The position numbers were made by a program, and so were the translations under genes. A stretch of 38,262 bases of DNA from IMG/VR virus record IMGVR_UViG_3300008255_000063, positions 1 through 38,262 of that record; one strand, 5' to 3'. The notes under the pieces were generated by a model. That model was not told where the DNA came from and made no database searches. It worked only from the letters and a program-made list of their open reading frames with translations. Shown piece after piece: positions 4,771-37,413 of this stretch. Source of the stretch: a virus. The stretch's first letter is position 1. Each line of letters opens with the position of its first letter.

Positions 4771-5678
4771 GCGTATTTTTTATTAAAGAGTTCTTTAATA
4801 AAATCCAGGATTAACTTCCAGAGAGGAGTTGCTGGCTGAGTGATTGGCTCGACTTCTACGTCCTCCTCGTCCTTGATTACATGCTCGGCTGTTACGATCA
4901 CTCGGTAGCCATAGTCCATGAAGTCATAATCAGTTGCTAGGCGTTTTATATAATCTCCGTCGTGTGAGTCCAAATAGTTATCAAAAATCGTGTAGAAAGG
5001 CTCCTGGACCACTACAAACGCATGATTAGGAGTCTTGTCAGACCGTGGATAAATACCATTACTAGGCTTCGACCAAGCATACCCCCCCACATCGATGAGA
5101 TCTTCTTTCAGCAACCAGTTGTAATCTCTTTCAAGTACACGCTCGTAGTTAATTGTGAAGCGTTTTTTAAACTCAAGCCCAAGAGCTAAGAGCTCTGGAG
5201 TGATGCGAGCAATATCATGGTACTCCTCCCATGTCATTGTCTTTTCCAGTGGGAGTTTACTTTTAGGGACCATACCCATGTTATAGATAGCGTCACAAGG
5301 AGCTTTGAGAGAGTTACCGTTACGAGTTGTGCCAGAGAGAATAGCAATAAAAGCATCAGAAAAAGTGACGCCATCATCAGAAAAATAACCATTATCGATT
5401 AGCCATTGTTTGTTTTCTGGAGAGATCTTGTCATTACTAAAGAGGTAGTTAAACTTTGTCTCTAAGATATTCACCGGAGCTCGAGAGGCACAGTCCATCG
5501 TGTCATTCTTTCCTTTTTGGATCTCACCGGCTGGCAAGTATTTAAGACGTTCTGTGCTCGGCATTTCGGCTGATAAACAAACAGGTGAGGAGCTACCAAA
5601 AATCCAGTCCTCAGCACTTTGATCAGCTATTTCTTTGGCTAGATCCAGGCCGTAGTTTACTGTGGTATTTTGCTCCAT
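4767..5678 (-). CDS. Putative papain-like cysteine peptidase-fold protein.
   Basis: 303-aa ORF. It has a Gln...Cys motif (EIQKGKNDTMDCASRAP), a downstream NHAF (TPNHAFVVVQ) and then DNY. This matches the Q/C/H/N order of papain-fold enzymes, with His in an NHA(V/F) context. Confidence 0.4.
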   Translation of the reverse strand: MEQNTTVNYGLDLAKEIADQSAEDWIFGSSSPVCLSAEMPSTERLKYLPAGEIQKGKNDTMDCASRAPVNILETKFNYLFSNDKISPENKQWLIDNGYFSDDGVTFSDAFIAILSGTTRNGNSLKAPCDAIYNMGMVPKSKLPLEKTMTWEEYHDIARITPELLALGLEFKKRFTINYERVLERDYNWLLKEDLIDVGGYAWSKPSNGIYPRSDKTPNHAFVVVQEPFYTIFDNYLDSHDGDYIKRLATDYDFMDYGYRVIVTAEHVIKDEEDVEVEPITQPATPLWKLILDFIKELFNKKYA

Positions 5679-6915: not shown

Positions 6916-9900
6916 TTATTCTCGAGTCCAGTTTCCAAAGACACTGATCGTTACGTAGTTTACTGCTCCAGTAGTAGCTCCAAAGTCGATGTATTGAAGC
7001 TCTGAGGCTATGTAGGTTGCGTTTGTGATAGATCCGTCGTCAGTTGTATTGGTCGTGCCACAAGTAATATCCTCGCTCGAGTTACCACTAGCATCTTCTA
7101 TTGCTATAACCTTTGAAGTACCTCCTGTAACGTGACATTGGATCCGACTGATCGTGTAGCCATCTAGGTATGTGGCTGTTGGTAGTAGTCCTCCAGAGAT
7201 AAAGGCATCTGAGGTTGAGGCTACTGTAGTACCCCATATCCGGATATCTTTTGTAGGGATGACGTGAGGTGTAGCTCCAATAATAAGTTGATTATCTGTC
7301 GTGTCGTAAGCGATCTCTCCGGCTGAGTTGACAGTAGGGTTAGTTCCGTTTGGTATTTCCAGACTTGTAGCTCCACCAAAATCCCACTCACCTAAAAGAG
7401 TTGTGATACCTGTATTGAGCATTTCCATAAACTTAGTACCAGCGTTTGAGAACAAAGTTAAAATACTAGCTCCAGATATTCCATGTACATTTAAGTCGGA
7501 AAAAACTGAGGGAGCTGATTGTATCGTTGGCTCAACGTATTTGTCTGGATATTCATTGTCTCCTATATGCCACAGAGAAACTCGCTTTATACCCTGTCGC
7601 TCGGCTCGTTCACGTTTAATATTTAAGGCTTCACTGTCAGAGACAAAATAACTGTTTCCTCCATTTGTCCAAGTAAGCTCTCCAGACTCAGCATCTCGAG
7701 TGGCTCCAGAAAAACCAGGGACCGAACTGATAGCATCGTATGTGTATGCTGTAAAAGAATATCCACCAGTTGCTCCACCGTATCCAGAGGCCGGTATACC
7801 AATAATCAAGCGATCATGGTTACTGATTTTAGATTTTGCATAGTTGATGATTTCATCTTGCCATTTTAAAGGAGCGTTTGGTCGTCCGGCTCCATAGTCA
7901 AAGTGATAGTCGTATACTGCAATAAGTAGATAGTCTACAGGTACGTCCTCAAAGTCCTCATACTCAAGTTGATAGTAACCATCGCTGTTTGCACTATCCC
8001 ATTCATCTCCGGATCCGGATTCACAGTTAGAGCATGAGTTCCAAATAGGAGGGAGGTAGATCATAGTTTTAAGACCATATTTGTGAGCCTCGTTTGAGAG
8101 ATATCTTACATAGTTAATATAGTCAGTTGTCTCTCCAGCCGTCCACGATCCAAATCCCTCCCAGTCTAGCTCAATGCCTGTAAAGCCAGTAGAGGTTGCA
8201 AAGGCAATAAGCTCAGCCGTCATGCTTGTTACAAGTGTACTAGAGCCTGTCAGAGTGTGGATCTCTGGATCGTTACCGGACACCGTCACAAATTGCTCAG
8301 TCGAGTTATCTTTGATGATGAGTGTATTAGTAGCGTTATAACCAAAAGCACCATAACCGGCTACAGTCCGGAGATCAAGGGTTCCTATATCACCACCAGT
8401 AGCATCTACCTCATACCAAATTGGCTTGATCGTATGAAAGTTATTCGCCTCGATATCAGTATTTACATTTAAAGCATCCGGAAAAGTCCAGCCTTGAAGT
8501 GTAGATCTCCATTCTGTTGTAGTTGCTGATCCTCCAGAGCCGGATGCTGTGACACAGGTAAAAGATCCAGTATCACTGATATCCTGGAGAAAATCATTCC
8601 CAGTACAAGGAGTACCAAAAAACGATGCTAGAGTCGGAGACGTGATACTAGGCGATGTCCCAAACACAAGAGCTCCGGATCCAGTTTCTCCAGTTACAGC
8701 ACTGGCTAAGTTTGCACTCGATGGTGTACCTAAGAAAGTCGCTACTCCTGTACCGAGTCCGGATACTCCAGTCGCAATAGGGAGGCTTGTTGCATCAGAT
8801 AGGTTGAAAGCTGGAGTGGCATCAGTACCTCCAAGAGAAAGCGACACACCTCCGTACGAGACAGAGGAGTTTGCCAGCATAGCATTTGAGATAGCACTGT
8901 TATCTACAGTACAGGTCGTACCATTACAAGTAAAAGATCCAAAGTCCGAGGCTGAGAGATTATCCGGATCGATGGCATTAGCCGTGATTTGCTGAGTAGC
9001 CAAAGATAAATAATCCTCTCCAGCTAGAGTAACGGCATTGTGCATATTGGTATATGCTGTCTGCCAGTCAGTAGTTGAAGCTGTCAAAATTGGCCCATAA
9101 CCACTGTCATAAGCGATTGCTAGTGTGCCAGTAGTAGTTACTGGACTCCCTGTCACTGTAAAGCCTGTAGGGACCGTCTGAGCGACGCTAGTGACTGATC
9201 CACCGCCACCTCCGGCCGGTACAGCCCAAGTACCATCTCCTCTCCAAAAAGAAGTTGATGAGGCTCCGGTTCCACTATTAAGATTAGCTACTGCTAAGTT
9301 ACCAGTCACACCATTTGCTAGGTTGACTTGATTCCAAGATGGGTTATTGGATGTGCCTTGATTAGATAAATATCGTGTGGCGTTAGTATCTTTAGCAAGC
9401 TCAGCGATTGAGCCGGCACTTGCTCCATATAAAAGATCGCCTTGTGCTACTGCACCTCCAGCAAAGTTGTTGCCATCAAACGTACCTGTCATAGCGGATG
9501 TGAGGACCGCTAGAGTACCGGATGTTGGATAGGTGACGTTTGTGTTTCCAGTAGTAGTGAGGGTAAGACTGTGAGCTCCAGAGCGGATAAAGCTGTTGGC
9601 TCCGATTGTAAAAGTAGATGGGAGCACCGGAGTACCTGTAAATGTTGGTGAGGCTAGAGGAGCTTTGAGATCTAGTGAGGCTTGTGTAGGGATGACATAT
9701 CCAGTATCCAGTCCAAAAGCCAAAGTCCCCGATGAAGTAATCGGAGATCCTGTGATAGTTAGTCCTGTCGGTACGGTAGCGGAAACGCTCGTAACAGTGC
9801 CAGTTGCCCCTCCACCGCCTCCGGCTGGCCAAGTAGTCTCACAGGTATCTCCAGTGAGACAGATCTGAGCCACAGTGATTGTAGCGTTCCCCATCCATAC

Positions 9901-12122: not shown

Positions 12123-12136
12123 AGTTTAAGTGTTAT

Positions 12137-12179
12137 GAGTAAGGGAGGAGGGAGGGATTAACCTCCCACTCCTCTACTC
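12137..12179 (-). terminator. Strong GC-rich stem-loop immediately after the major capsid gene (attenuator or stabiliser type).
   Basis: gagtaagggaggagggagg (12137..12155) pairs with cctcccactcctctactc (12162..12179). I count about 16 bp with two bulges and a loop of gattaa. No clear U-run follows on the minus strand. Confidence 0.4.
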
Positions 12180-12190
12180 GCTAATAAGTC

Positions 12191-14624: not shown

Positions 14625-14691
14625 AGATTTTAGTCATTATTTCAATCTGCCGACTAGAGCAGATAGTCTTTGATGTCGGAGTAAGAGCTCC

Positions 14692-14718
14692 GTCCCATTA
14701 CAGGAGAGAGGCTTATTA
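14692..14718. repeat. Right arm of the inverted repeat bracketing the scaffold gene.
   Basis: Plus strand reads GTCCCATTACA-ggagaga-GGCTTATTA. Its reverse complement, TAATAAGCC-tctctcc-TGTAATGGGAC, matches 13499..13522 in 9+11 nt. Confidence 0.85.
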
Positions 14719-14720
14719 CG

Positions 14721-14785
14721 GCCTCAGTGGTTGATCCCTCACTAGACGAGCGTCTGTGTTCGACCTAGAGATCCACCACTGAGGC
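14721..14785 (-). promoter_or_regulatory. Long imperfect hairpin (16-bp stem, 33-nt loop) in the 183-bp gap upstream of the scaffold gene.
   Basis: GCCTCAGTGGTTGATC (14721..14736) pairs with GATCCACCACTGAGGC (14770..14785) with one mismatch. It lies 23 nt downstream of the stop of ORF 14808..15578 on the minus strand. Confidence 0.6.
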
Positions 14786-14807
14786 AATAAAAGCCCCAGT
14801 TAGTAAC

Positions 14808-26260: not shown

Positions 26261-26289
26261 AATATAGCACACACTCGCAACCGTTGCAA
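26261..26289 (-). promoter_or_regulatory. Sigma-70-like promoter overlapping a CAACCGTTGCA near-palindrome.
   Basis: The minus strand reads TTGCAA-cggttgcgagtgtgtgc-TATATT, with a 17-nt spacer. The -10 lies 35 nt upstream of ATG 26226. Confidence 0.6.
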
Positions 26290-26291
26290 CT

Positions 26292-26324
26292 AAAAAGCCT
26301 GTGGAAATTGTCCACAGGCTTTTT
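26292..26324 (-). terminator. Rho-independent bidirectional terminator.
   Basis: aaaaAGCCTGTGGAaattgTCCACAGGCTtttt. A perfect 10-bp stem (26296..26305 with 26311..26320) is flanked by A and T runs. It lies 12 nt after the stop of ORF 26336..26689. Confidence 0.85.
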
Positions 26325-26335
26325 ATTAAAGGTTT

Positions 26336-26721: not shown

Positions 26722-26750
26722 ATCATAGCTTATTTATGCAACCGTTGCAA
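26722..26750 (-). promoter_or_regulatory. Sigma-70-like promoter overlapping a CAACCGTTGCA near-palindrome.
   Basis: The minus strand reads TTGCAA-cggttgcataaataagc-TATGAT, with a 17-nt spacer. The -10 lies 33 nt upstream of ATG 26689. Confidence 0.6.
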
Positions 26751-26781: not shown

Positions 26782-27387
26782 TTAATCATCGTCCTCATCA
26801 GCTCCAAAAATCTCATCCAGGATCTCAGCCTCCTCCGGAGTAACGTGATGATGAGTGTGCTTGTCGAGCTTAAACTTCTTGATAATACGGCCTTTCTTTA
26901 CGTCATAGTGTTTGATCGCTTGCATCTTAGTTTTTAGATCAGCGTTTTGTATGAGTAAGAAAGCGTGTTGCTTGTCTACAAACGCATCATTTAAATCTCC
27001 CACCTCCATTACATGATTTATATAGGCCAAAATCTGAGCAGTTTTAAGCAATCTATAAGAAGCGTTAGAGGCTACATCATAGGCTCCAGGGATCTTTAAA
27101 TTAACATTAAACGCTTTAATATAAGCTCGGACACCGTTTCCAAAAAACTCTTGATCAGATGCAAATAACTCACAAAAAAACTTTTCCTGTGGAGAGAGAT
27201 CATCAAAGTTATACTCCTCGGTGTACTGACCTCGAGCAATAAGTGTCTGGATCTTTTCAGTAATATCTTTTTTTTTCCTAGATCCTCTGATTATTTTTTT
27301 AGGTGGTTCCTTATTATCTTTAAGCTCTGGTTTTTTAAGGACCAGCTTTTTTTTAAGTTTCAGTTTTGGTTTGGTAGCCGTTGGCAT
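26782..27387 (-). CDS. Terminase small subunit-like (Terminase_2-type HTH) DNA-binding protein.
   Basis: Start taken at ATG 27387 (MPTATKPKLKLKKK...), giving 201 aa. A Lys-rich N-terminus is followed by EKFFCELFASDQEFFGNGVRAYIKAF...ASNASYRLLKTAQILAYI, which resembles the TerS N-terminal HTH signature. Confidence 0.5.
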   Translation of the reverse strand: MPTATKPKLKLKKKLVLKKPELKDNKEPPKKIIRGSRKKKDITEKIQTLIARGQYTEEYNFDDLSPQEKFFCELFASDQEFFGNGVRAYIKAFNVNLKIPGAYDVASNASYRLLKTAQILAYINHVMEVGDLNDAFVDKQHAFLLIQNADLKTKMQAIKHYDVKKGRIIKKFKLDKHTHHHVTPEEAEILDEIFGADEDDD

Positions 27388-27391
27388 AGGT

Positions 27392-27694
27392 TTAAGTGAC
27401 AGTGATCTGGACCACATCAACTAATTGAGATCCTACCACTACAGATAAGATTACACTATCCTTTGTAACTTTTGTCGAGCGTTTTACCTCCATCCCATAA
27501 ATACGCTGGACCGCATAGTGATTTTGTGTCGTCATATTGAGCGAGCTGAAAGCGACGGATCGCATCAGACTCATATCGTTATGCTTAATCACTGTCGGAC
27601 GGACCGCATACTTACCTTGTATAAAATCCACACACTGAGAAATAGCATCAATGAGCAGATGTCCTTTGGCTAGTTTTACTTTATGTAGTTCCAT
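27392..27694 (-). CDS. Hypothetical protein.
   Basis: 100-aa ORF, the first gene downstream of structured element A. Confidence 0.6.
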   Translation of the reverse strand: MELHKVKLAKGHLLIDAISQCVDFIQGKYAVRPTVIKHNDMSLMRSVAFSSLNMTTQNHYAVQRIYGMEVKRSTKVTKDSVILSVVVGSQLVDVVQITVT

Positions 27695-27722
27695 AAATAT
27701 TTTTCTTAAATGTGATCACCTT

Positions 27723-27827
27723 TCGACAGCTCTAGTCCCAGCCTCCCCACCTTTCTGTAAAGGCGACAGAGGGAGGTTACTAGCTTGTGGTGGAGTAGAG
27801 CTGTCGAGAGTGGACCACCCACTCTCT
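27723..27827 (-). ncRNA. Structured intergenic element A (candidate cis-regulatory RNA).
   Basis: It lies in the 137-nt gap 27695..27831. A 12-bp stem TCGACAGCTCTA (27723..27734) pairs with TAGAGCTGTCGA (27796..27807) and encloses 61 nt with nested CCTCCC/GGGAGG and CCTTT/AAAGG pairings. An adjacent 8-bp hairpin pairs GAGAGTGG (27806..27813) with CCACTCTC (27819..27826). It shares GGACCACC(C)ACTCTCT with element B. Confidence 0.5.
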
Positions 27828-27831
27828 GATA

Positions 27832-28050
27832 TTAGCCCTTATCGTCGTCAGCATCCGGTAATGCTGGCTGGATCGACTGTACTCCGAGCTCGATCATCTC
27901 CTTGAGATTTTCGACAACCTCCTGGATCTTACTAGGATCCTCTCCGTGTACGAGCTCCACCTTAATCTCTAAGGTGTGGATCGTCTCATTGTTGTCTGTG
28001 ACCTTGCTCTTGGCATTTACGCCTTTGAGTATTCCGTTTAGTCTGACCAT
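27832..28050 (-). CDS. Hypothetical protein.
   Basis: Start taken at ATG 28050 (MVRLNGILKG...), giving 72 aa. It overlaps the upstream stop by 13 nt. The track start at 28071 is also possible. Confidence 0.55.
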   Translation of the reverse strand: MVRLNGILKGVNAKSKVTDNNETIHTLEIKVELVHGEDPSKIQEVVENLKEMIELGVQSIQPALPDADDDKG

Positions 28051-28286
28051 GTAACCGCTTTGACAGCCCACATCTGAGCTGACTGTGCCTCAGTGATAGC
28101 GACAGAGCAGAGTCTTTTTACTTCCGGAGATTCTGACTTCTTACGCATATCATCAAGACGATCGATCACTTTGGCATAGGCTGTTTTGAGGATAAATACT
28201 TCCTCATTTTGACCAGGATTAAAAGCGAGTCCTACCGCTTTCTCACCAAAAGTCAGCTCCCTATCCCTTTTTGTATTTCCATCCAT
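28038..28286 (-). CDS. Small helical protein and candidate anti-defence sponge (Acb2/Tad1-hairpin-like; unverified).
   Basis: 82-aa ORF with VGLAFNPGQNEEVFILKTAYAKVIDRL followed by RLCSVAITEAQSAQMWAVKAVT. From memory, this FNP(S/G)...A(I/L)T..E.A.MWAVKA signature belongs to a widespread small phage family. Confidence 0.6.
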   Translation of the reverse strand: MDGNTKRDRELTFGEKAVGLAFNPGQNEEVFILKTAYAKVIDRLDDMRKKSESPEVKRLCSVAITEAQSAQMWAVKAVTWSD

Positions 28287-28318
28287 AATCGATACTTTAA
28301 CTAATAATCCCAGTTAAA

Positions 28319-28410
28319 CACTGGAGGGAGAGTAGTGATGTAAGCCATTACTTTAACCGGAGGACCTGTCGGCCAGACCCCTTATCCGGACCACCACTCT
28401 CTCGCCAGTG
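28319..28410 (-). ncRNA. Structured intergenic element B (candidate cis-regulatory RNA), related to element A.
   Basis: It lies in the 176-nt gap 28287..28462. A long-range stem pairs CACTGG-agg-GAGAGTAGTG (28319..28337) with CACCACTCTC-tcg-CCAGTG (28392..28410). An inner CCGGA/TCCGG stem is enclosed. GGACCACCACTCTCT lies at 28388..28402. Confidence 0.5.
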
Positions 28411-28462
28411 TATTACTGACGGAGCTGTGAGGCCTCCTGTAGCGATTCTACGTGCTTAAACG

Positions 28463-29050
28463 CTAGATATGCCATAAAGCCATCTGTTCTTGTGGTTTGC
28501 CATATACGGAGTCCGGCTCTACTTGTTCTAGAGGAGGTAGCTCAAACGCTGACTTGTAGCTTTCGCTTTCTGTCTTAGTAAGCTCAAGCTGAGGGTATCG
28601 ACCAGACACTATGAGTAGTGCCTCCCTCCTACACATCGCCATACGAGCGAGGATATCCTTTCGGAGTTGCTCGTGGTTTTTTACGATCTTTTGATTTTCC
28701 ATCTGAGTGTTAGCAGATCCAGTCTTCATTCGAGGCCGGTAGTACTCGAGAGTAATATCAGTCTCCTGGAGAGCTGTCTGGAACTTCCTCCACTTCTGAT
28801 CAATCGATCGGAGCATCTCCTCGCTTGTATGTCCGAGAGCTATCTTGCTACTTGTGTCCTCAATAGGCTCGAGGTTTTCAAAGATGCAGATATTACCCTC
28901 CTTAAACATACTCCCAGGGTTCATGTGTACTCCATGCTCAGCGAGACGGATTGTCCGGAGACATTCGTTAATCTCTTTTTGCTGGCTCATCTTAAAGATG
29001 TGGATCTTGATCCCTTTCCTTTCTGGTACTTGCTGTGCTGTGTCGTTCAT
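28463..29050 (-). CDS. Hypothetical protein.
   Basis: 195-aa ORF starting 2 nt after the upstream stop. Confidence 0.65.
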   Translation of the reverse strand: MNDTAQQVPERKGIKIHIFKMSQQKEINECLRTIRLAEHGVHMNPGSMFKEGNICIFENLEPIEDTSSKIALGHTSEEMLRSIDQKWRKFQTALQETDITLEYYRPRMKTGSANTQMENQKIVKNHEQLRKDILARMAMCRREALLIVSGRYPQLELTKTESESYKSAFELPPLEQVEPDSVYGKPQEQMALWHI

Positions 29051-29334: not shown

Positions 29335-29613
29335 CTACTTGGTTTTATATTCTGGAACATCCAACACGAGAGATGCTCTCATGTCGTTACGCTTTCCAAC
29401 TCCGGCTAGTAATGCTCGGAGAGACTTGATTGTCGTCCCTCCTTTCCCTATCAGTGATCCAGCATCAATGTCGGACGGCTTTACTGTAAACAGTACGCCT
29501 CGTGCATCAATACTAGGACGGACTGAGAGTTTCTCCGGCTCGTCGAGTAGAGGCTTGATAGTTGATACTATCCAGTCTCGTACGAGCTCGATCTTTCGTC
29601 TCTGATCTTCCAT
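29335..29613 (-). CDS. KH-domain RNA-binding protein (YlqC/UPF0109-like).
   Basis: Start taken at ATG 29613 (MEDQRRKIELVRDWIVSTIKPLLDEPEKLSV...), giving 92 aa. The GxxG loop in SLIGKGGTTIKSLRALL and the overall length and layout match the small bacterial KH proteins. The 169-aa track version reads through a terminator and promoter region from a GTG. Confidence 0.75.
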   Translation of the reverse strand: MEDQRRKIELVRDWIVSTIKPLLDEPEKLSVRPSIDARGVLFTVKPSDIDAGSLIGKGGTTIKSLRALLAGVGKRNDMRASLVLDVPEYKTK

Positions 29614-29644: not shown

Positions 29645-29674
29645 AAAAAGGCCCTCAGCCGAGGAGCCCTTTTA
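29645..29674 (-). terminator. Terminator-like hairpin in the leader of the early operon (attenuator candidate).
   Basis: The minus strand reads GGCTCCTC-ggct-GAGGGCC-TTTTT. The stem is 7 bp with one bulged A (50..56 with 61..68). It is flanked by aaaaa on one side and tttt on the other, and lies 32 nt upstream of the KH ATG. Confidence 0.55.
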
Positions 29675-29780
29675 CTATACCAGCATATGCTCTCTCTCCA
29701 CAGAGAGCAAAAAATGTACCAGATACGGCCAACGTAAGAGTCATGTTCAAACTCAAAACATTTTTTGTAAAAAATTGCAT
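29655..29780 (-). CDS. Leader peptide / small hydrophobic ORF (41 aa) ending inside the attenuator hairpin.
   Basis: My codon-by-codon translation reads MQFFTKNVLSLNMTLTLAVSGTFFALCGERAYAGIVKGLLG. The ATG at 29780 lies 3 nt after a TGGGATAC motif. The stop TGA (29655..29657) spans the loop/3'-arm junction of hairpin 29650..29668. Confidence 0.45.
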   Translation of the reverse strand: MQFFTKNVLSLNMTLTLAVSGTFFALCGERAYAGIVKGLLG

Positions 29781-29821
29781 ACCGTATCCCATACCCCAAC
29801 AGTATATACCCAGCTCTATAC

Positions 29822-29876
29822 ACAACGGTTGCACTTATCCCCACTTTTTGTTAATGTAGTAATGCAACCGTTGCAG
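29822..29876. promoter_or_regulatory. Divergent control region with two oppositely oriented copies of the CAACCGTTG near-palindrome.
   Basis: ACAACGGTTGCA lies at 29822..29833 and TGCAACCGTTGCAG at 29863..29876, with centres 42 bp apart. The minus-strand reading of the second is CTGCAA-N17-TAACAA. A possible plus-strand promoter is TTGCAC (29829..29834)-N17-TAATGT (29852..29857). Confidence 0.5.
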
Positions 29877-32469: not shown

Positions 32470-35400
32470 CTATAGTGTAGGTAATTGTGGGAGTTTTGGC
32501 AAGCTGTTTGCTGGGAGAGCTGGGAGCTGAGGGAGTTTTGGTACTGAGCTCTCTGGAGTCTCCTCATCCCCCTCAAAGAGTCCGTTATCGAACTGACCAA
32601 ACACTTTTGGAGAGATTGTTTTCTTGAGCTTAGTAATACCACGATTCTTACCCTCATCCTCTCCGGACTTGATGATATCCATCTTAGGGTTTAAGAAACC
32701 GTCCTCAAAAGAAACGATGTCAGTTAGACCCTTAATGATATCGGCTAGGAAAGCATTAAAGCGAGCCTGTGAGGTAAACAGGTTAGGATCCATCGCTCCG
32801 ACCATTGTGAGAGCATCCTGGTAGCCTTTAACGACTAATTGCTCAGCAAAGCTCCTGTCCTTTTTATCTTGTAGAGAGCGAGCGTAGCCACCGACCACGA
32901 GTGAGATAGTACCAGCCAATAGAGCTGATCGGAGGAGCTCTCTAGTTTCCTTACGCTTGAGTGTGGCCTTGAGTCCCTCTTTACGAGCGACGTTCTGGAC
33001 CGTCTTTAGGTTATCGATAGTTGTCGACATGATCGGGACCGCCCAGGTACGATACTGAGTAAAGACTTTTCCAAGTGCTGTCTTACCCATCACTGACTCA
33101 GCTCCCTCTACTACTCGGTAGCGACCCATCTCTTTACGGAGTTCTGCTAGACGTTTTGATGTGATGATACCTGTCTTAAACTCTTGCTTTGTAAGGGATC
33201 CTAGCAAGTGTTGAGCGTTAGCTGTACGTGCTCCCTCAGCAAACAAAGCAAACATTCCTGTCATAAGTTTATCTCCTGGATCACTAGCTTGGTTACGCAT
33301 TTTTGTCAGCGTACTCTCTCCGATGAAAGACTCATTCTGACGGAGGATCTCTTGTCCTCGCTTAGTGAGCATACGGCCAGATCCGAGTGACATCTTACGA
33401 GCTCCGAGGCCTATAAAGGTAGATGATTGCTCACCTAAGAAAGAGGCAACTCCGACCGGCACACTAAAGCCCAAGTCGATAATACGAGTAAGAGCTACAC
33501 CGGAGCGGAGTACCCAGTCGACACGACCTCCAGGCTTTACAATCGTCTCAGCTACACGTCCCTTTTTAGTGTTGAGCCACTTCTTTGTAAACTTTTTAAG
33601 GGATCGATCGAGCTCTAGGCCACGCTCAGAATACACTCGAGGCGATAACGCATGAGCATAGATATCAATCTTAGGGACCAGGCTGTCGAGTGCCACCTTA
33701 CGTTCAAAGGTAGTAAAGTAGATCTCTACAGCTTTAGCGACGTTCTGTGTCGGGACCATGCCTCCGGTACGTTGCATAGAGAATTGGAAAAACTTTTCCA
33801 GAGGGAGGATCTCTCCGGTATCGCCATCAAGGATATTGAGATAAGCCTCATCTTGTTTGTACTGATCAAAGCTCTCTTTAAATGCTTTGATAAGACCGTC
33901 GTCTTTCCAAGTTTCAAGGAAACCACGTCGGATATGAGTGATGTAATCCGATCGGTACTTTTTTAATACTTGCATCTGGACCAGGTAGTCTCGAGCTTGC
34001 TCGTATAGATTTTTAATATATTGGCCGGCTTCGATCTCCTCGGCTGTCATTTCATCAGCCAGTTTAGACTTACCAAGAGCATCAGACTCGAGCCACTGGA
34101 AAATCTTTTTATCTGTAGGGATAAACTTATCGAGGAAACCTCGCTTTGTAGACTTGCGAGCCTTACTCATCAATACATCAAGTCGCTCTCGGATCTTAAT
34201 CACGTTCTCTCCAGCCTCAATAAAGGCTCGATTCTTTTCAGTGACCATCACATCATAAAATGGATTCTGTCTAGCTAGAGCTGAGTCATATCGATACTCA
34301 TCCATTTCCTTGTAAGCGACGTTACCAATAGATCCAGGCTCGACTCCAGCATCCTTAGCCAGACTCTCAAGAGCCTCACGGATCGTCCGGATGTCTGCTA
34401 TGTCTGTATGTTTTACAGTTTGGATCTGTCGCTTGGTGAGAAACTCATCACCTAGTTTAAAGTTCTCAAGTACATCGATCATCTCGACGATTTGCTTTTC
34501 TGTCATCTGCTCCATGCTAGGGTAGCCCATCGCTTGAAACATATTTTCAGTCTTTTTAAAGTCACGCTCAAAGATGAGAGACTTGAGTTCTACACGACGC
34601 TCAATAGCTCTAAAGGTTGCCTCTCCCTCAATCTGGATTTTATCCATGTAGGCTTTCCACTGATCGTCGGTATAGAGACGAGGATCCTGGAAACGTGTTC
34701 GCTTGAGGATTCGATTCCACTCGTGCTGTGAGAAATGGAAAAAATCTCGGACGTTTGCGAGCTCTTTTTGTCGTGAAACACCCTCAGCCTTAATCTCAGC
34801 TTTGAGTGCCTCAAGGATTTTCTTAGTATCTCGGTAGTCTTGAGTACGGCTTTGGACCTCCTCGATCATCTCAGCTAGTCGCTCACGTTGTTTCACGTAT
34901 AACCTAAACTCCTCTCGAGCCATCTCTGTAGACTCAAAACCTAGATCTCCAGCGATCTCATCGCCTTGTGTAGCCCACTTTGATTTACCAATACCAGTTA
35001 CCTCTCCAAGAGAGCCGACATTTTCTCCGACTTTAGGAGCATACTTTGCTAGTTGCTTAGCTGGATTTGCATCGATGGCATCCTTAGCAAACTCTATCTC
35101 GAGTTTTTTATATTCCAACTCCTCTGCTTTCGACAAAGTAGTACCACCCTTTTTATCGAGTAGTGCTGTCCTGGCCTTTCGAGCGATCTCAGTAGGAGAG
35201 AGAGCTGTGGCATCATCGTCAGCTTGCTTAGCTATTTTTGCTTTAGTGGCCTTGTAGTACTCCTCAGCACTAGCAAATCCCTTGCTTTTTACAGTGGCCT
35301 CAAGAGCCTCACGAGTAATACCAGTCTTGTTAAAGAAATGGTTAAAGGATGTAGACTGAGCTACTTGATCCTGGAGTTTATTGTTTACCCTACGGCTTCG

Positions 35401-37413
35401 AGTATTTCCTCCATCCCCTCTCGAAACGCTTGCTGTCCTTTCTCGTACGCTGGACCGGATGTCGGAGTCGGGTTTTTTGGCCACGCTCTTTGTGGTCGCT
35501 TTTTCGGATCGGAGAGACTCCTCTCGTCGGGTTTTTGATTTGCGGATTTGTTTTTCAGTGAGTTTAGCATTTTCGTTTGTGCTTAAATACTTATAAAGAT
35601 TTTCCTTATTATACCTCAATTTGTCAACCGTTGCAATAATCTCATCCGGATCTGTAATAATCCTCATTCGATCAGTTCCGAGGTCGGCTTTGTTTCTTAC
35701 TAAGCGAGTATCTGAAAGATTTATTTTATAGCCATCATCTGCTAGTTTTTTTATAGTATTAACAAAGCCTACATGCTTATCTATAAACACTTTCAATGGT
35801 ACGTCTCTACCAGTTCGTATTGCTCTTGATTGAGCCCACTTCCAAGCTCTAGCTATGTCTGGCAAGATTGCATCAATTTCGATAGATTTACCAAACTCCT
35901 CTACCTGTTTTAGTTTAGCTATCGCACTATCGTAGTCTGCCATTACACCATCTACAATGATTCCTTTTACATCATCGTTAGTCTCTAGTTTTTTAAGGAC
36001 TGTTTCGCTTTTCCCAGATCCAGATCCACCGGCTAAAAACCGGACTGTATCATTCTTATCCTCCTTGAGAGCCTTAGCAAACGCATCCTTTGCAAGTTGT
36101 GAGAAAGTCTCGTGATCTTTAGGATCAGTCATACCGGCCACTTTTTTGAGAGCGTCCGGATCAATCACTATATTACCCTTGCCGTTATCAAAGACTTTTA
36201 GAGCGTCATCGACGGCCTTTACAGTATCTCCCTTTGTAACCGCCTCTTTAAAGGCCACAGGATCAACTTTAGGAGCGTCTGATACTACCTTTGATACTTC
36301 TGTCGCATCGGGACCTTTAACAGCGTCATCGAGGATTTTGGCTATGCTGAGCTCATTCTGTGACTGAGCTATCTTAGGAGCGATCTCCTCGGCCACCTCC
36401 TCGCTGATGCCTAGATTTTTAAGGACTGGAGTAATGTCTTTTACATCATCATAGTTTTTAAGTGTCGCTAAGATAGGACCTTTAGCGATTTTTGTAGTCC
36501 CAAAAAATATAGGAGCATCAAGGACAGCAAAAGCATCCTCGAGTAAGTTCGTGACTCGGAGTGCTGATTTCTCCTCTTTTGAAAGCTCGGCTCCGGTATC
36601 TGCCAGTTGATCTACGTTGTTACCCTCCTGGCCTGGAGCTTTAGGAACTGTTTTAACAGCATTGTTTTTTACGTCCTGGATAGCTTTATCAAGTAGCTCT
36701 CGCTCGGTTAAATCTGGAAAACTCTCGGCTAGTTTGTCGTAGCGAGTCATTACTTGCTCACCTACTTCGGCATCAGTAGGATCCATTTTCTTTTGGAAAC
36801 CCTCAAACAGAAAACCAAGTACTCCCTTTTCGACAATCGTCTGAGGGATAGAGCCTGGAGTGTAGAGACTATTGGATGGACCTTGTGGACCAGTACCAGT
36901 AAGAAACTTACCCACGAGTGGGATCTTACTTAATGACTGTCTGGCTTTTTGTACTAAATCCTCCTGGCCTTGTCCGAGTGTTACCCCTTGATCGATATCA
37001 GCTTGTGATTTTTGCTGATTGTATTGAGATTTTTCAGCGTCAGTAAGATCTGCAAAAGTCTTTGGCTTTTCAGTCGGAACTATTGGAGCCGGCTGTACGT
37101 TACTCGAGGGAGTGGATGTCTTAGTCTGGCTAGATGCTATAGCTGGAGTGGATGTAGGGATATCAATACCAAACTTTACGTTAGATGCCGGTTTACTCAT
37201 CAATCGCTCCTGGATTGAGGGACCAATAAAAGGTTTTAAATTGAGAGCTTTTCCGACGCTAGACTTTGACGTATTAGTATTCCCTCCTCGCTGAGATACC
37301 GGCACATAACCCCCACTAGTGGATTTCGTAGTGATGGTTGCTGGAGCCTTTGGAGATCCGGACTGTACGGCTTGCTCCGCTTTTTTCTTTCTCTCTGAGA
37401 CGGGTACATACAT
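32470..37413 (-). CDS. Giant virion protein (polyvalent / ejected-core or tape-measure-like) with an embedded zeta-toxin-like P-loop kinase domain.
   Basis: 1647-aa ORF. A Walker A motif, FLAGGSGSGKSE (AGGSGSGKS encoded at 36007..36033), sits in a ~170-aa zeta/AAA_33-like module at about aa 430-600. The middle is long and helical. The C-terminal third has hydrophobic helices (VALTRIIDLGFSVPVGVASFLG, LMTGMFALFAEGA, LLRSALLAGTISLVVGGYA). The C-terminus has a tandem PKLPQLP. Confidence 0.85.
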   Translation of the reverse strand: MYVPVSERKKKAEQAVQSGSPKAPATITTKSTSGGYVPVSQRGGNTNTSKSSVGKALNLKPFIGPSIQERLMSKPASNVKFGIDIPTSTPAIASSQTKTSTPSSNVQPAPIVPTEKPKTFADLTDAEKSQYNQQKSQADIDQGVTLGQGQEDLVQKARQSLSKIPLVGKFLTGTGPQGPSNSLYTPGSIPQTIVEKGVLGFLFEGFQKKMDPTDAEVGEQVMTRYDKLAESFPDLTERELLDKAIQDVKNNAVKTVPKAPGQEGNNVDQLADTGAELSKEEKSALRVTNLLEDAFAVLDAPIFFGTTKIAKGPILATLKNYDDVKDITPVLKNLGISEEVAEEIAPKIAQSQNELSIAKILDDAVKGPDATEVSKVVSDAPKVDPVAFKEAVTKGDTVKAVDDALKVFDNGKGNIVIDPDALKKVAGMTDPKDHETFSQLAKDAFAKALKEDKNDTVRFLAGGSGSGKSETVLKKLETNDDVKGIIVDGVMADYDSAIAKLKQVEEFGKSIEIDAILPDIARAWKWAQSRAIRTGRDVPLKVFIDKHVGFVNTIKKLADDGYKINLSDTRLVRNKADLGTDRMRIITDPDEIIATVDKLRYNKENLYKYLSTNENAKLTEKQIRKSKTRREESLRSEKATTKSVAKKPDSDIRSSVRERTASVSRGDGGNTRSRRVNNKLQDQVAQSTSFNHFFNKTGITREALEATVKSKGFASAEEYYKATKAKIAKQADDDATALSPTEIARKARTALLDKKGGTTLSKAEELEYKKLEIEFAKDAIDANPAKQLAKYAPKVGENVGSLGEVTGIGKSKWATQGDEIAGDLGFESTEMAREEFRLYVKQRERLAEMIEEVQSRTQDYRDTKKILEALKAEIKAEGVSRQKELANVRDFFHFSQHEWNRILKRTRFQDPRLYTDDQWKAYMDKIQIEGEATFRAIERRVELKSLIFERDFKKTENMFQAMGYPSMEQMTEKQIVEMIDVLENFKLGDEFLTKRQIQTVKHTDIADIRTIREALESLAKDAGVEPGSIGNVAYKEMDEYRYDSALARQNPFYDVMVTEKNRAFIEAGENVIKIRERLDVLMSKARKSTKRGFLDKFIPTDKKIFQWLESDALGKSKLADEMTAEEIEAGQYIKNLYEQARDYLVQMQVLKKYRSDYITHIRRGFLETWKDDGLIKAFKESFDQYKQDEAYLNILDGDTGEILPLEKFFQFSMQRTGGMVPTQNVAKAVEIYFTTFERKVALDSLVPKIDIYAHALSPRVYSERGLELDRSLKKFTKKWLNTKKGRVAETIVKPGGRVDWVLRSGVALTRIIDLGFSVPVGVASFLGEQSSTFIGLGARKMSLGSGRMLTKRGQEILRQNESFIGESTLTKMRNQASDPGDKLMTGMFALFAEGARTANAQHLLGSLTKQEFKTGIITSKRLAELRKEMGRYRVVEGAESVMGKTALGKVFTQYRTWAVPIMSTTIDNLKTVQNVARKEGLKATLKRKETRELLRSALLAGTISLVVGGYARSLQDKKDRSFAEQLVVKGYQDALTMVGAMDPNLFTSQARFNAFLADIIKGLTDIVSFEDGFLNPKMDIIKSGEDEGKNRGITKLKKTISPKVFGQFDNGLFEGDEETPESSVPKLPQLPALPANSLPKLPQLPTL
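35608..35636 (-). promoter_or_regulatory. Consensus sigma-70-like promoter plus CAACCGTTGCA motif inside the giant gene.
   Basis: The minus strand reads TTGCAA (35631..35636)-cggttgacaaattgagg-TATAAT (35608..35613), with a 17-nt spacer. The architecture matches the intergenic promoters at 26261..26289 and 26722..26750. Confidence 0.5.

Follow-up and report, generated by a model that had tools for sequence, protein, structure and literature searches.

In a 38,262-base stretch of phage DNA (IMG/VR record IMGVR_UViG_3300008255_000063, positions 1 to 38,262, referred to here in full as the window), two structured RNA elements occupy the non-coding gaps on either side of a pair of small genes in the early operon. 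Element A (27712-27826, minus strand) follows the pair and element B (28309-28421, minus strand) precedes it; the first gene of the pair encodes a putative anti-defence protein of the Acb2/Tad1 type and the second a 72-amino-acid (aa) protein. Comparison with relatives leaves us highly confident that A and B are cis-acting RNA structures maintained by selection. They are two previously undescribed RNA motifs, narrow in distribution and supported by covariation. As to how they act, we tentatively propose that they are RNase III-type processing and stability signals that segment the early mRNA as in phage T7, a reading that we consider plausible rather than probable and that we weigh below against several others.

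Conservation and covariation of the two elements

To collect relatives, we searched with the proteins of the flanking genes and then retrieved the contigs that encode the matches; they are metagenomic phage contigs of ~37-39 kilobases (kb). These gave 8 lineages for element A and 9 for element B, among which the 195-aa protein encoded directly before B ranges from 97% down to 44% identity. All relatives share the same gene order, and both elements are present in every contig that spans the gaps. The distribution of the elements is confined to this one small phage family: the GenBank phage collection gave no match beyond the Acb2-like gene itself, a scan of IMG/VR with two exact stretches of the elements returned one already-known relative only, a protein-based metagenome scan for more relatives returned nothing, and a scan with the KH protein encoded at the start of the operon, combined with a homology search, produced no new lineage. 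When the hairpin pattern GAGAGNGGTGGTCCNCTCTC was sought in viral, metagenome and genome collections, its matches outside the family all lay in unrelated contexts (for example, the bidirectional terminator of an AT-rich phage), and none of these sequences encodes the neighbouring proteins.

A first-pass annotation of the window, made from the letters alone, had described the gaps 27695-27831 and 28287-28462 as highly structured, and folding bears this out. The minimum free energy (MFE) of gap A is -51 kcal/mol (z = -3.8, equalled in 0/200 shuffles); gap B as a whole reaches -58 kcal/mol with z = -2.4, and its 121-nucleotide (nt) core z = -4.1 (0/200 shuffles). Each gap contains a 27-nt imperfect inverted repeat, 81% complementary, with a spacing of 53 nt in one gap and 54 nt in the other.

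The same annotation had named beforehand, as the test of its proposal, whether the gaps are conserved with compensatory changes in relatives, and both elements withstand this test. RNAalifold on MAFFT alignments predicted 28 pairs for A, 15 of them with compensatory changes, and 29 pairs for B, 13 of them with such changes. Covariance models built from these alignments (R1 for A, R2 for B) were used to re-align all matches, which were then compared with shuffled alignments and with controls in which the pairing was slid along the sequence:

Element A: 90.3% of alignment cells paired; 15 pairs changed on both sides, reached in 0/500 shuffles; slid controls 36-48% paired, with 2-8 pairs changed
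Element B: 93.4% of alignment cells paired; 13 pairs changed on both sides, reached in 0/500 shuffles; slid controls 35-47% paired, with 2-5 pairs changed

Model-fitted alignments lean towards the structure, and the sequences are few (effective number 1.8-2.65); the compensatory changes are visible in the raw sequences too. A has 13 G·U pairs and 5 A·C mismatches, B has 34 and 6; this excess of G·U points to the operon's sense RNA as the strand that folds. In nucleotide identity, the elements are no different from the coding DNA on either side of them.

Neither element belongs to a known RNA family. Rfam 15, which the first-pass annotation had proposed as a check, gave no match at gathering score anywhere in the window; a relaxed search of 27300-28900 gave chance-level matches only (E >= 0.79), and relatives L042, L044 and L045 gave none at E <= 1. 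ARAGORN found no tRNA or tmRNA. A hammerhead core was considered and set aside, the sequence CUGACGA occurring in L012 only and CUGGCGA in the other lineages. A promoter for a phage RNA polymerase at GAGAG was likewise rejected: A and B share no similarity upstream of GAGAG, and the genes scanned included none for an RNA polymerase.

Element A

All parts of element A lie on the minus strand and are listed here in the direction of transcription.

27806..27826, minus strand: hairpin P1, 8 base pairs (bp), GAGAGUGG / loop GUGGU / CCACUCUC, present in the centroid structure and in all 8 lineages
27796-27805 with 27725-27734, minus strand: closing helix P2, 10-12 bp, around an inner domain of 61 nt, from the fold and from compensation
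27777-27791, minus strand: conserved loop ACCACAAGCUAGUAA of the inner domain, with AAGCUAG, conserved across lineages
27742-27776, minus strand: inner-domain hairpin, CCUCCC/GGGAGG and CGCCUUU/AAAGGUG, from the fold
27712..27724, minus strand: segment s3, GAAAGGUGAUCAC, a near repeat of the 5' arm of P1
27695..27711, minus strand: A/U-rich leader AUUUAAGAAAAAUAUUU before the AUG of the 100-aa gene, unpaired in all folds

The arrangement of an 8-bp hairpin beside a stem that encloses 61 nt had already been noted in the first pass, which counted 12 bp where we find 10-12. P1 begins 5 nt past the stop codon of the 72-aa gene in the window and 4-9 nt past it across lineages. Its pattern is GAGAG-N-GG UGGU CC-N'-CUCUC, in which the sixth pair, N/N', covaries (U-A, A-U, G-C and C-G) and the remainder is nearly invariant in sequence. 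The sequence of P2, by contrast with that of P1, is free to drift and is compensated throughout, with both-side changes in 7/8 pairs and 98% of cells paired; in the raw sequences of different lineages the two arms read GACAGCUCUA/UAGAGCUGUC, ACAGGAGCCA/UGGUCCUGU, CCUGUAUCG/CGAUACAGG and GGAAGCUCC/GGAGCUUCC. Relative L009 retains only the two helices of A and has no inner domain, so that domain is dispensable. A 38-codon open reading frame (ORF) inside A was rejected as coding sequence: it is not conserved, and its region is missing in L009.

Segment s3, in the form (C)GAGAG..GAUCAC, is able to pair with the loop of P1 and its 3' arm, taking the place of the hairpin's 5' arm. The resulting extension of P2, a rod of ~23 bp, is what MFE folding gives for the window and for L008, L009 and L011. 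Of the alignment cells, 80% retain this pairing (38-50% in slid controls), and its covariation is not significant. Depending on the lineage, the local and rod states differ by -5.1 to +7.6 kcal/mol. The leader that follows s3 has no Shine-Dalgarno sequence, like many genes of this phage.

At the same junction, L008 carries an extra structured module of ~125 nt (5296-5435), between a 69-aa gene and element A, in which a 15-bp closing helix surrounds three small hairpins (z = -6.6); it shows no similarity to any other sequence that we fetched.

Element B

Element B follows the same general plan, with a hairpin at or just past the upstream stop codon and then a long closing helix with a variable tip.

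28403..28421, minus strand: hairpin P0, CGUCAG / UAAUACA / CUGGCG, a 7-bp helix with 94% of cells paired
28390-28401 with 28328-28339, minus strand: main helix P1, GAGAGUGGUGGU with AUCACUACUCUC, closing the main domain 28328..28401
28357-28389, minus strand: inner CCGGA/UCCGG pairing and a variable hairpin, inside P1
28340-28356, minus strand: conserved single strand UUAAAGUAAUGGCUUAC, inside P1
28309..28325, minus strand: hairpin P4, UCCAGU / GUUUA / ACUGGG, followed by the U-rich tail AUUAUUAGUU, found in a scan for terminator-like sites

Three pairs of P0 are changed on both sides and three on one side only. Its loop contains the UAA stop of a small upstream ORF, and in L042 the first hairpin of B follows the upstream stop within ~8 nt. 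The main helix P1, a long pairing that the first-pass annotation had also seen, has both-side changes in 5/11 pairs and 97% of cells paired. P4 with its tail amounts to a weak terminator-like site, with a stem of 5-6 bp and an interrupted U-rich tail; it is much weaker than the phage's clear terminators (26290-26325 and 29652-29665), and A has no terminator at all.

The region of P0 is largely the reverse complement of the region of P4: by hand count, 14/19 positions pair in the window and 15/19 in the very different L011. Because of this complementarity the whole of B can form a rod of 25-35 bp. P0-P4 pairing is retained in 71% of cells, whereas slid controls reach 34-42%; 4 of its pairs are changed on both sides (a number reached in 21/500 shuffles). 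For the window (z = -4.1), L009 (z = -6.5), L011 (z = -7.6) and L042, MFE folding gives this rod; three separate hairpins are preferred in L012.

The 5' part of gap B, ~50 nt, is accounted for by a 20-codon remnant, MAYLAFKHVESLQEASQLRQ* (28413-28475, minus strand). Its full-length version in relatives is a 54-aa ORF with a membrane-spanning-looking product, MENLHKRIRKVARDLKDIALIVAVVAFLWLFDGLMTHLASMHVKSLQEAPQLRQ (L004, 2477-2641), which overlaps the end of the 195-aa gene and has its stop in the P0 loop. This ORF is called in L004 and is missing in L011 and L042. The first-pass annotation had seen no plausible ORF, obvious promoter or U-tailed terminator in either gap. With regard to promoters this stands, as scanning revealed no sigma-70-like promoter inside either gap on the operon strand; the ORF remnant and the weak terminator-like P4 qualify the other two parts of the statement.

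Relationship between A and B

The two gaps share the minus-strand motif AGAGAGTGG(G)TGGTCC, at 27812-27827 in A, where the plus strand reads GGACCACCCACTCTCT, and at 28388-28402 in B, where one base is lacking. First noticed in the initial pass over the sequence, this match of 15/16 positions proved to be the best local alignment between the gaps, reached in 4/3000 shuffles. It is also the top match between A and B in L004, L008 and L012, and is not so in L009 and L011. Model R1 matches A in every lineage, with 88-153 bits, and nothing else; R2 matches B in all 9 lineages, with 89-156 bits, and gives weak antisense matches to B itself because B is symmetrical. At E <= 10, R1 has no match to B and R2 none to A. 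Since the covariance models do not detect each other, the description of A and B as two related elements holds for the shared motif of the window and falters beyond it: the sequences point only weakly to a relationship.

Neither model finds a third copy of an element in the window, and AGTGGTGGNNC, tried as a third copy of the motif, is not enriched there (8 found, 5.1 expected). We also considered direct contacts between the elements and rejected them. A kissing interaction between the loop sequences AAGCUA of A and UGGCUU of B is no better than chance on a rough estimate (probability of ~0.3 for a match of this kind), B of L011 has no UGGCUU, and L009 keeps the motif in B while it has no A domain. 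Pairing in trans through GAGAG/CUCUC shows no co-variation between the elements.

A possible role in processing of the early mRNA

The predicted rods, long irregular double helices of ~23 bp in A and 25-35 bp in B, are the type of substrate that an RNase III-like endonuclease would take. Cuts at B and A would free the Acb2-like gene and the 72-aa gene as a separate dicistronic mRNA. Once the rods had been cut, the local hairpins (P0 and P4 of B, P1 of A), of which P0 and P1 are backed by covariation and P4 is conserved, could refold at the new ends. The upstream product would then be shielded from exonucleases at its 3' end and the downstream product at its 5' end. The outcome would be a sponge-type anti-defence protein expressed independently of its neighbours, possibly at a high level; a protein of this type is, on general grounds, needed in quantity. 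If processing is indeed what the elements do, the retention of local hairpins together with long-range complementarity would be explained, because the rod is what is cut and the hairpins are what refold. The helices appear to be the part under selection, given that L009 dispenses with the apical domain of A.

Several features of the sequence agree with such a role. Both elements lie between genes on the sense strand of a polycistronic mRNA, as processing signals do. An irregular helix of at least ~20 bp, or about two turns, which is another mark of such signals, is provided by the predicted rods, whose outer parts are without significant covariation. The downstream start codons and their A/U-rich leaders are unpaired in the folds of both A and B, which agrees with a mode of action other than occlusion of a start site. 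Among the functions listed in the first-pass annotation, processing signals that excise a sub-operon mRNA appear to fit the anatomy best, given predicted rod-like helices of 25-35 bp.

In T7 the early precursor is cut co-transcriptionally by RNase III into mono- and dicistronic mRNAs (PMC4858673). The T7 sites (R0.3, R0.5, R1, R1.1 and R1.3) resemble A and B in being irregular double-stranded hairpins between the genes of an early polycistronic mRNA, several to an operon and with some sequence resemblance among them, that leave the downstream start sites free. They differ in length, ~60 nt as against 110-125 nt for A and B, and no homology at the level of sequence or model is shown between the two sets; A and B, unlike the T7 sites, have branched, variable tips and local hairpins that are supported by covariation and compete with the rod.

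Several points weigh against processing by RNase III. The long-range pairings that form the rods keep their potential (80% and 71% of cells) without significant covariation, and the MFE fold in L012 and L045 consists of local hairpins and not of the rod. The near-invariant P1 of A and the conserved single-stranded motifs suggest recognition of a specific sequence, which RNase III alone does not need. Finally, the idea of RNase III alone leaves unexplained why each element starts at a stop codon. Should processing nevertheless prove correct, T7-style segmentation of early mRNA would extend to an unrelated group of phages, and there would be a hint of how a phage boosts its sponge protein.

Alternative readings of the elements

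The position of each element at a stop codon is what a translation-coupled conformational switch or attenuator would account for, and we regard this as possible, though doubtful. A ribosome finishing the upstream ORF would melt the first hairpin (P1 of A, P0 of B), and the freed strand would pair with a segment beyond the domain on its 3' side. The new fold would alter translation or decay or, in B and by way of P4, transcriptional read-through into the next gene. The first hairpin of A indeed lies 4-9 nt past the stop, and in B the stop falls in the P0 loop or, in L042, within ~8 nt of the hairpin. Local hairpins supported by covariation coexist with competing long-range pairings that have been retained; s3 nearly repeats the 5' arm of P1 of A, and the two states of A are -5.1 to +7.6 kcal/mol apart across lineages. 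B in particular is laid out like a trp leader, with four segments that allow the classical alternative pairings 1:2, 2:3 and 3:4, an upstream ORF ending in or near segments 1-2, and a U-rich tail after the 3:4 hairpin. The likeness stops at a structured domain of ~75 nt between segments 2 and 3 of B, at the weakness of its 3:4 hairpin, at an upstream ORF that is not conserved (truncated in the window, absent in L011 and L042) and at A, which has no 3:4 hairpin. A switch would moreover have no obvious translational output, with the downstream AUG and leader unpaired in both states, and little output in termination either, P4 being far weaker than the real terminators at 26290-26325 and 29652-29665 and A having none; the alternative pairings themselves lack significant covariation, that of the 2:3 pairing of B being weak.

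The invariance of A suggests instead that the elements could be sites for a sequence-specific RNA-binding protein, either the KhpA-like KH protein of the phage or a host partner, serving as a translational operator or as an antitermination signal of the nut or put kind. This we think unlikely, although several observations speak for it. GAGAG-N-GGUGGUCC-N-CUCUC is nearly invariant in A in all lineages while the neighbouring helices drift, a similar GAGAGURGUGGKCC opens the main helix of B in most lineages, and single-stranded motifs are conserved in both elements (AAGCUAG in A, GUAAUGGCUUAC in B). A KH protein similar to KhpA and to a KH region of NusA is the product of the operon's first gene and is kept in all relatives, which makes it a candidate RNA-binding partner on the strength of its sequence. 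Yet the invariance may equally reflect nucleotides that have two alternative pairing partners, and the shared motif fades in L009 and L011.

The antitermination form of this idea was put forward in the first pass. Like lambda nut and HK022 put sites, A and B are paired, related RNA structures that act in cis in an early phage transcript, here with a KH protein like the NusA KH region encoded at the operon start. Unlike lambda nut, the gaps contain no boxA (CGCUCUUA-like) sequence, GCTCTTWA occurs in neither, and no short boxB-like hairpin is evident. Unlike HK022 put, which consists of two stem-loops just 3' of an early promoter and acts on terminators further along, they contain no promoter-like site that scanning could detect on the operon strand. 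The only strong terminator downstream is directly followed by its own promoter, and for that reason antitermination is not needed.

Still less likely is that the elements are functional RNAs in their own right, whether stable noncoding RNAs or decoys released from the mRNA or, in the case of B, a riboswitch controlling the Acb2-like gene. B is multi-stemmed, with conserved unpaired nucleotides and a platform-like alternative pairing, and sits directly 5' of a single gene of an anti-defence family; no Rfam family matches either element. On the other hand, scanning revealed no promoter-like site for the operon strand in the gaps, and the one terminator-like hairpin there is weak; A tolerates the loss of its inner domain, the elements are found in one small phage family only, and the Acb2-like genes of other phages go without them. 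The available sequences, being few and closely similar, do not suffice to define a binding pocket. The most specific versions, in which B senses a small molecule (such as a cyclic nucleotide of the host's cyclic-oligonucleotide-based antiphage signalling system (CBASS) or Thoeris) or the KH protein and thereby tunes the Acb2-like sponge, or in which excised A and B serve as anti-defence decoys, would be a long shot. If the elements did prove to be switches, or sensors of a protein or ligand, they would stand among the few examples of anti-defence genes regulated at the level of RNA.

A role at the level of DNA, as single-strand initiation sites, origin-like hairpins or recombination sites of a swappable cassette, is very improbable: inverted repeats do flank the two-gene unit, the divergence of the Acb2-like gene in L012 (71%, against 84% and 94% for the flanks) hints at allele exchange between conserved non-coding anchors, and a further, third structured module has been added at this junction in L008, but the gene pair does not change position between relatives, scans of three large collections gave the hairpin motif in no other related context, and pairs up to ~100 nt apart with many sense-strand G·U fit a transcript better than duplex DNA. 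The T4 promoter early stem-loop (PeSL) repeats and the attC sites of integrons are likewise structured non-coding repeats on either side of small accessory genes; A and B differ from them in enclosing the same genes in all relatives, in having no promoter-like site, in not being detectable copies of each other and in G·U pairs that indicate RNA structure.

The fixed place of the two genes also runs counter to the discrete cassette of the first-pass annotation. With both genes at an unchanging position throughout the relatives, nothing indicates a mobile cassette, and L045 has lost most of the 72-aa gene while it keeps A. Each element thus stays with its junction and with the gene behind it, and resembles a leader of that gene more than the edge of a cassette. 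In practical terms, A and B are well-defined targets of ~115 nt that come with natural compensatory variants, in a phage family without a close cultured relative.

Genes around the elements

In the direction of transcription, the genes and gaps of this part of the operon are as follows.

29335..29613, minus strand: KhpA-like KH protein, 92 aa, first gene of the operon (Pfam PF13083, E = 1e-12)
after the KH gene and before the 195-aa gene, minus strand: 92-aa protein, by gene order
28463-29050, minus strand: 195-aa protein, directly before gap B by gene order
28287-28462, minus strand: gap B, non-coding gap of the early operon, 5' of the Acb2-like gene
28038..28286, minus strand: 82-aa Acb2/Tad1-domain protein (Pfam PF24729)
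27832..28050, minus strand: 72-aa protein, no assigned function, overlapping the end of the Acb2-like gene by 13 nt
27695-27831, minus strand: gap A, non-coding gap between the 72-aa and 100-aa genes
27392..27694, minus strand: 100-aa protein, no assigned function, directly 3' of element A
3' of the 100-aa gene, minus strand: small-terminase-like protein, then DUF7717 and DUF3560 proteins, by gene order

The Acb2-like gene is the only recognisable anti-defence gene of the early region. Its product matches PF24729 with E = 1.4e-9 (38.5 bits, cut-off 27) and has no match in PDB by sequence; it is likely to be a cyclic-nucleotide sponge against CBASS or Thoeris. Homologues are encoded by Enterobacter phage EcP1, Pasteurella phage Pmp11, DSL-LC05, zth2-2 and ~146 Flavobacterium phage records, and neither A nor B is present near the Acb2-like genes of EcP1, Pmp11, DSL-LC05 and zth2-2. 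EcP1 has a structure of another kind 3' of its Acb2-like gene and a small overlapping gene (HQ641380.1 ~9463-9705; L046 1112-1354, minus strand of the locus): an intrinsic terminator, then an element of ~170 nt with a long-range closing stem of ~21 bp (MFE -84.7 kcal/mol, z = -5.5), which matches neither Rfam, R1 nor R2. The overlap of EcP1's Acb2-like gene with its small downstream gene equals the 13 nt of the window; the downstream protein is not homologous to the 72-aa protein, and we read the 13-nt overlap as a by-product of the conserved Acb2 C-terminus.

In L012 the Acb2-like gene (4857-5093) has 71% nucleotide identity to that of the window, as against 84% for B and 94% for the next gene on its two flanks, and it does not overlap the next gene. 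This divergence suggests replacement of the allele or fast evolution of an anti-defence gene. The 72-aa protein is identical in 4 contig types; in L045 (396-470) its gene is a short frame-disrupted remnant, with element A and the downstream gene intact. By sequence, the KH protein matches KhpA (PDB 7xqc, E = 1e-4) and an archaeal NusA KH region (2cxc, E = 1.4e-4).

Operon layout and other features of the genome

The window appears to be the complete genome of an uncultured tailed phage. It has 44.5% G+C and carries most of its genes on the minus strand. Public assemblies contain near-identical contigs of 38.2-38.3 kb, and the large terminase has only ~25-30% identity to those of the nearest cultured phages. 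The genes scanned included no recognisable one for an RNA polymerase or a DNA polymerase.

The first-pass annotation treated the early genes as a single operon with just these two long gaps. The gaps are as it described them; the operon is not one uninterrupted unit, because other same-strand gaps further down, of 92-109 nt, hold a sigma-70-like promoter and a strong terminator. One such terminator, AAAAAGCCUGUGGACAAUUUCCACAGGCUUUUU (26290-26325, minus strand), is strong, canonical and bidirectional-looking and lies between the DUF7717 and DUF3560 genes; a promoter follows it immediately, and the early operon is thereby split into several units. A palindrome, TGCAACNGTTGCA, occurs at 26737-26749, 26276-26288, 29863-29875 and 29821-29833, with a fifth site bearing 2 mismatches at 35623-35635, within a gene for a 1647-aa protein (with up to 2 mismatches, 5 sites found and 1.06 expected; 0/100 shuffles). 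It overlaps the -35 box at 26750 and at 26289, in the sigma-70-like promoters TTGCAA-17-TATGAT and TTGCAA-17-TATATT, and is probably the operator of a phage repressor or activator.

In the leader of the KH gene, a terminator-like hairpin that ends in a U5 tail lies ~40 nt 5' of the start codon (29652-29665, minus strand), and there is also a CUCUC/GAGAG hairpin, GCUCUCU GUGG AGAGAGAGC (29688-29709, minus strand); together these hairpins suggest regulated read-through into the operon. Most genes of the phage lack a Shine-Dalgarno sequence and have A/U-rich leaders instead, often with TTTAATAA or CATTTAA ~10-15 nt before the ATG, and a few genes have TTGGGATAC. This type of leader may help to narrow down the host.

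The 1647-aa protein (32470-37413, minus strand) is kept in relatives and has a kinase-like Zeta-toxin domain at residues 485-561, with no other recognisable domain. Among the structural genes, the gap 14625-14807 (minus strand) forms a hairpin of ~30 bp (MFE -68 kcal/mol, z = -5.3), and the gap 12123-12190 (minus strand), directly after the major head gene, a G/C-rich hairpin of 16 bp (z = -4.9); both may be further processing or stability sites.

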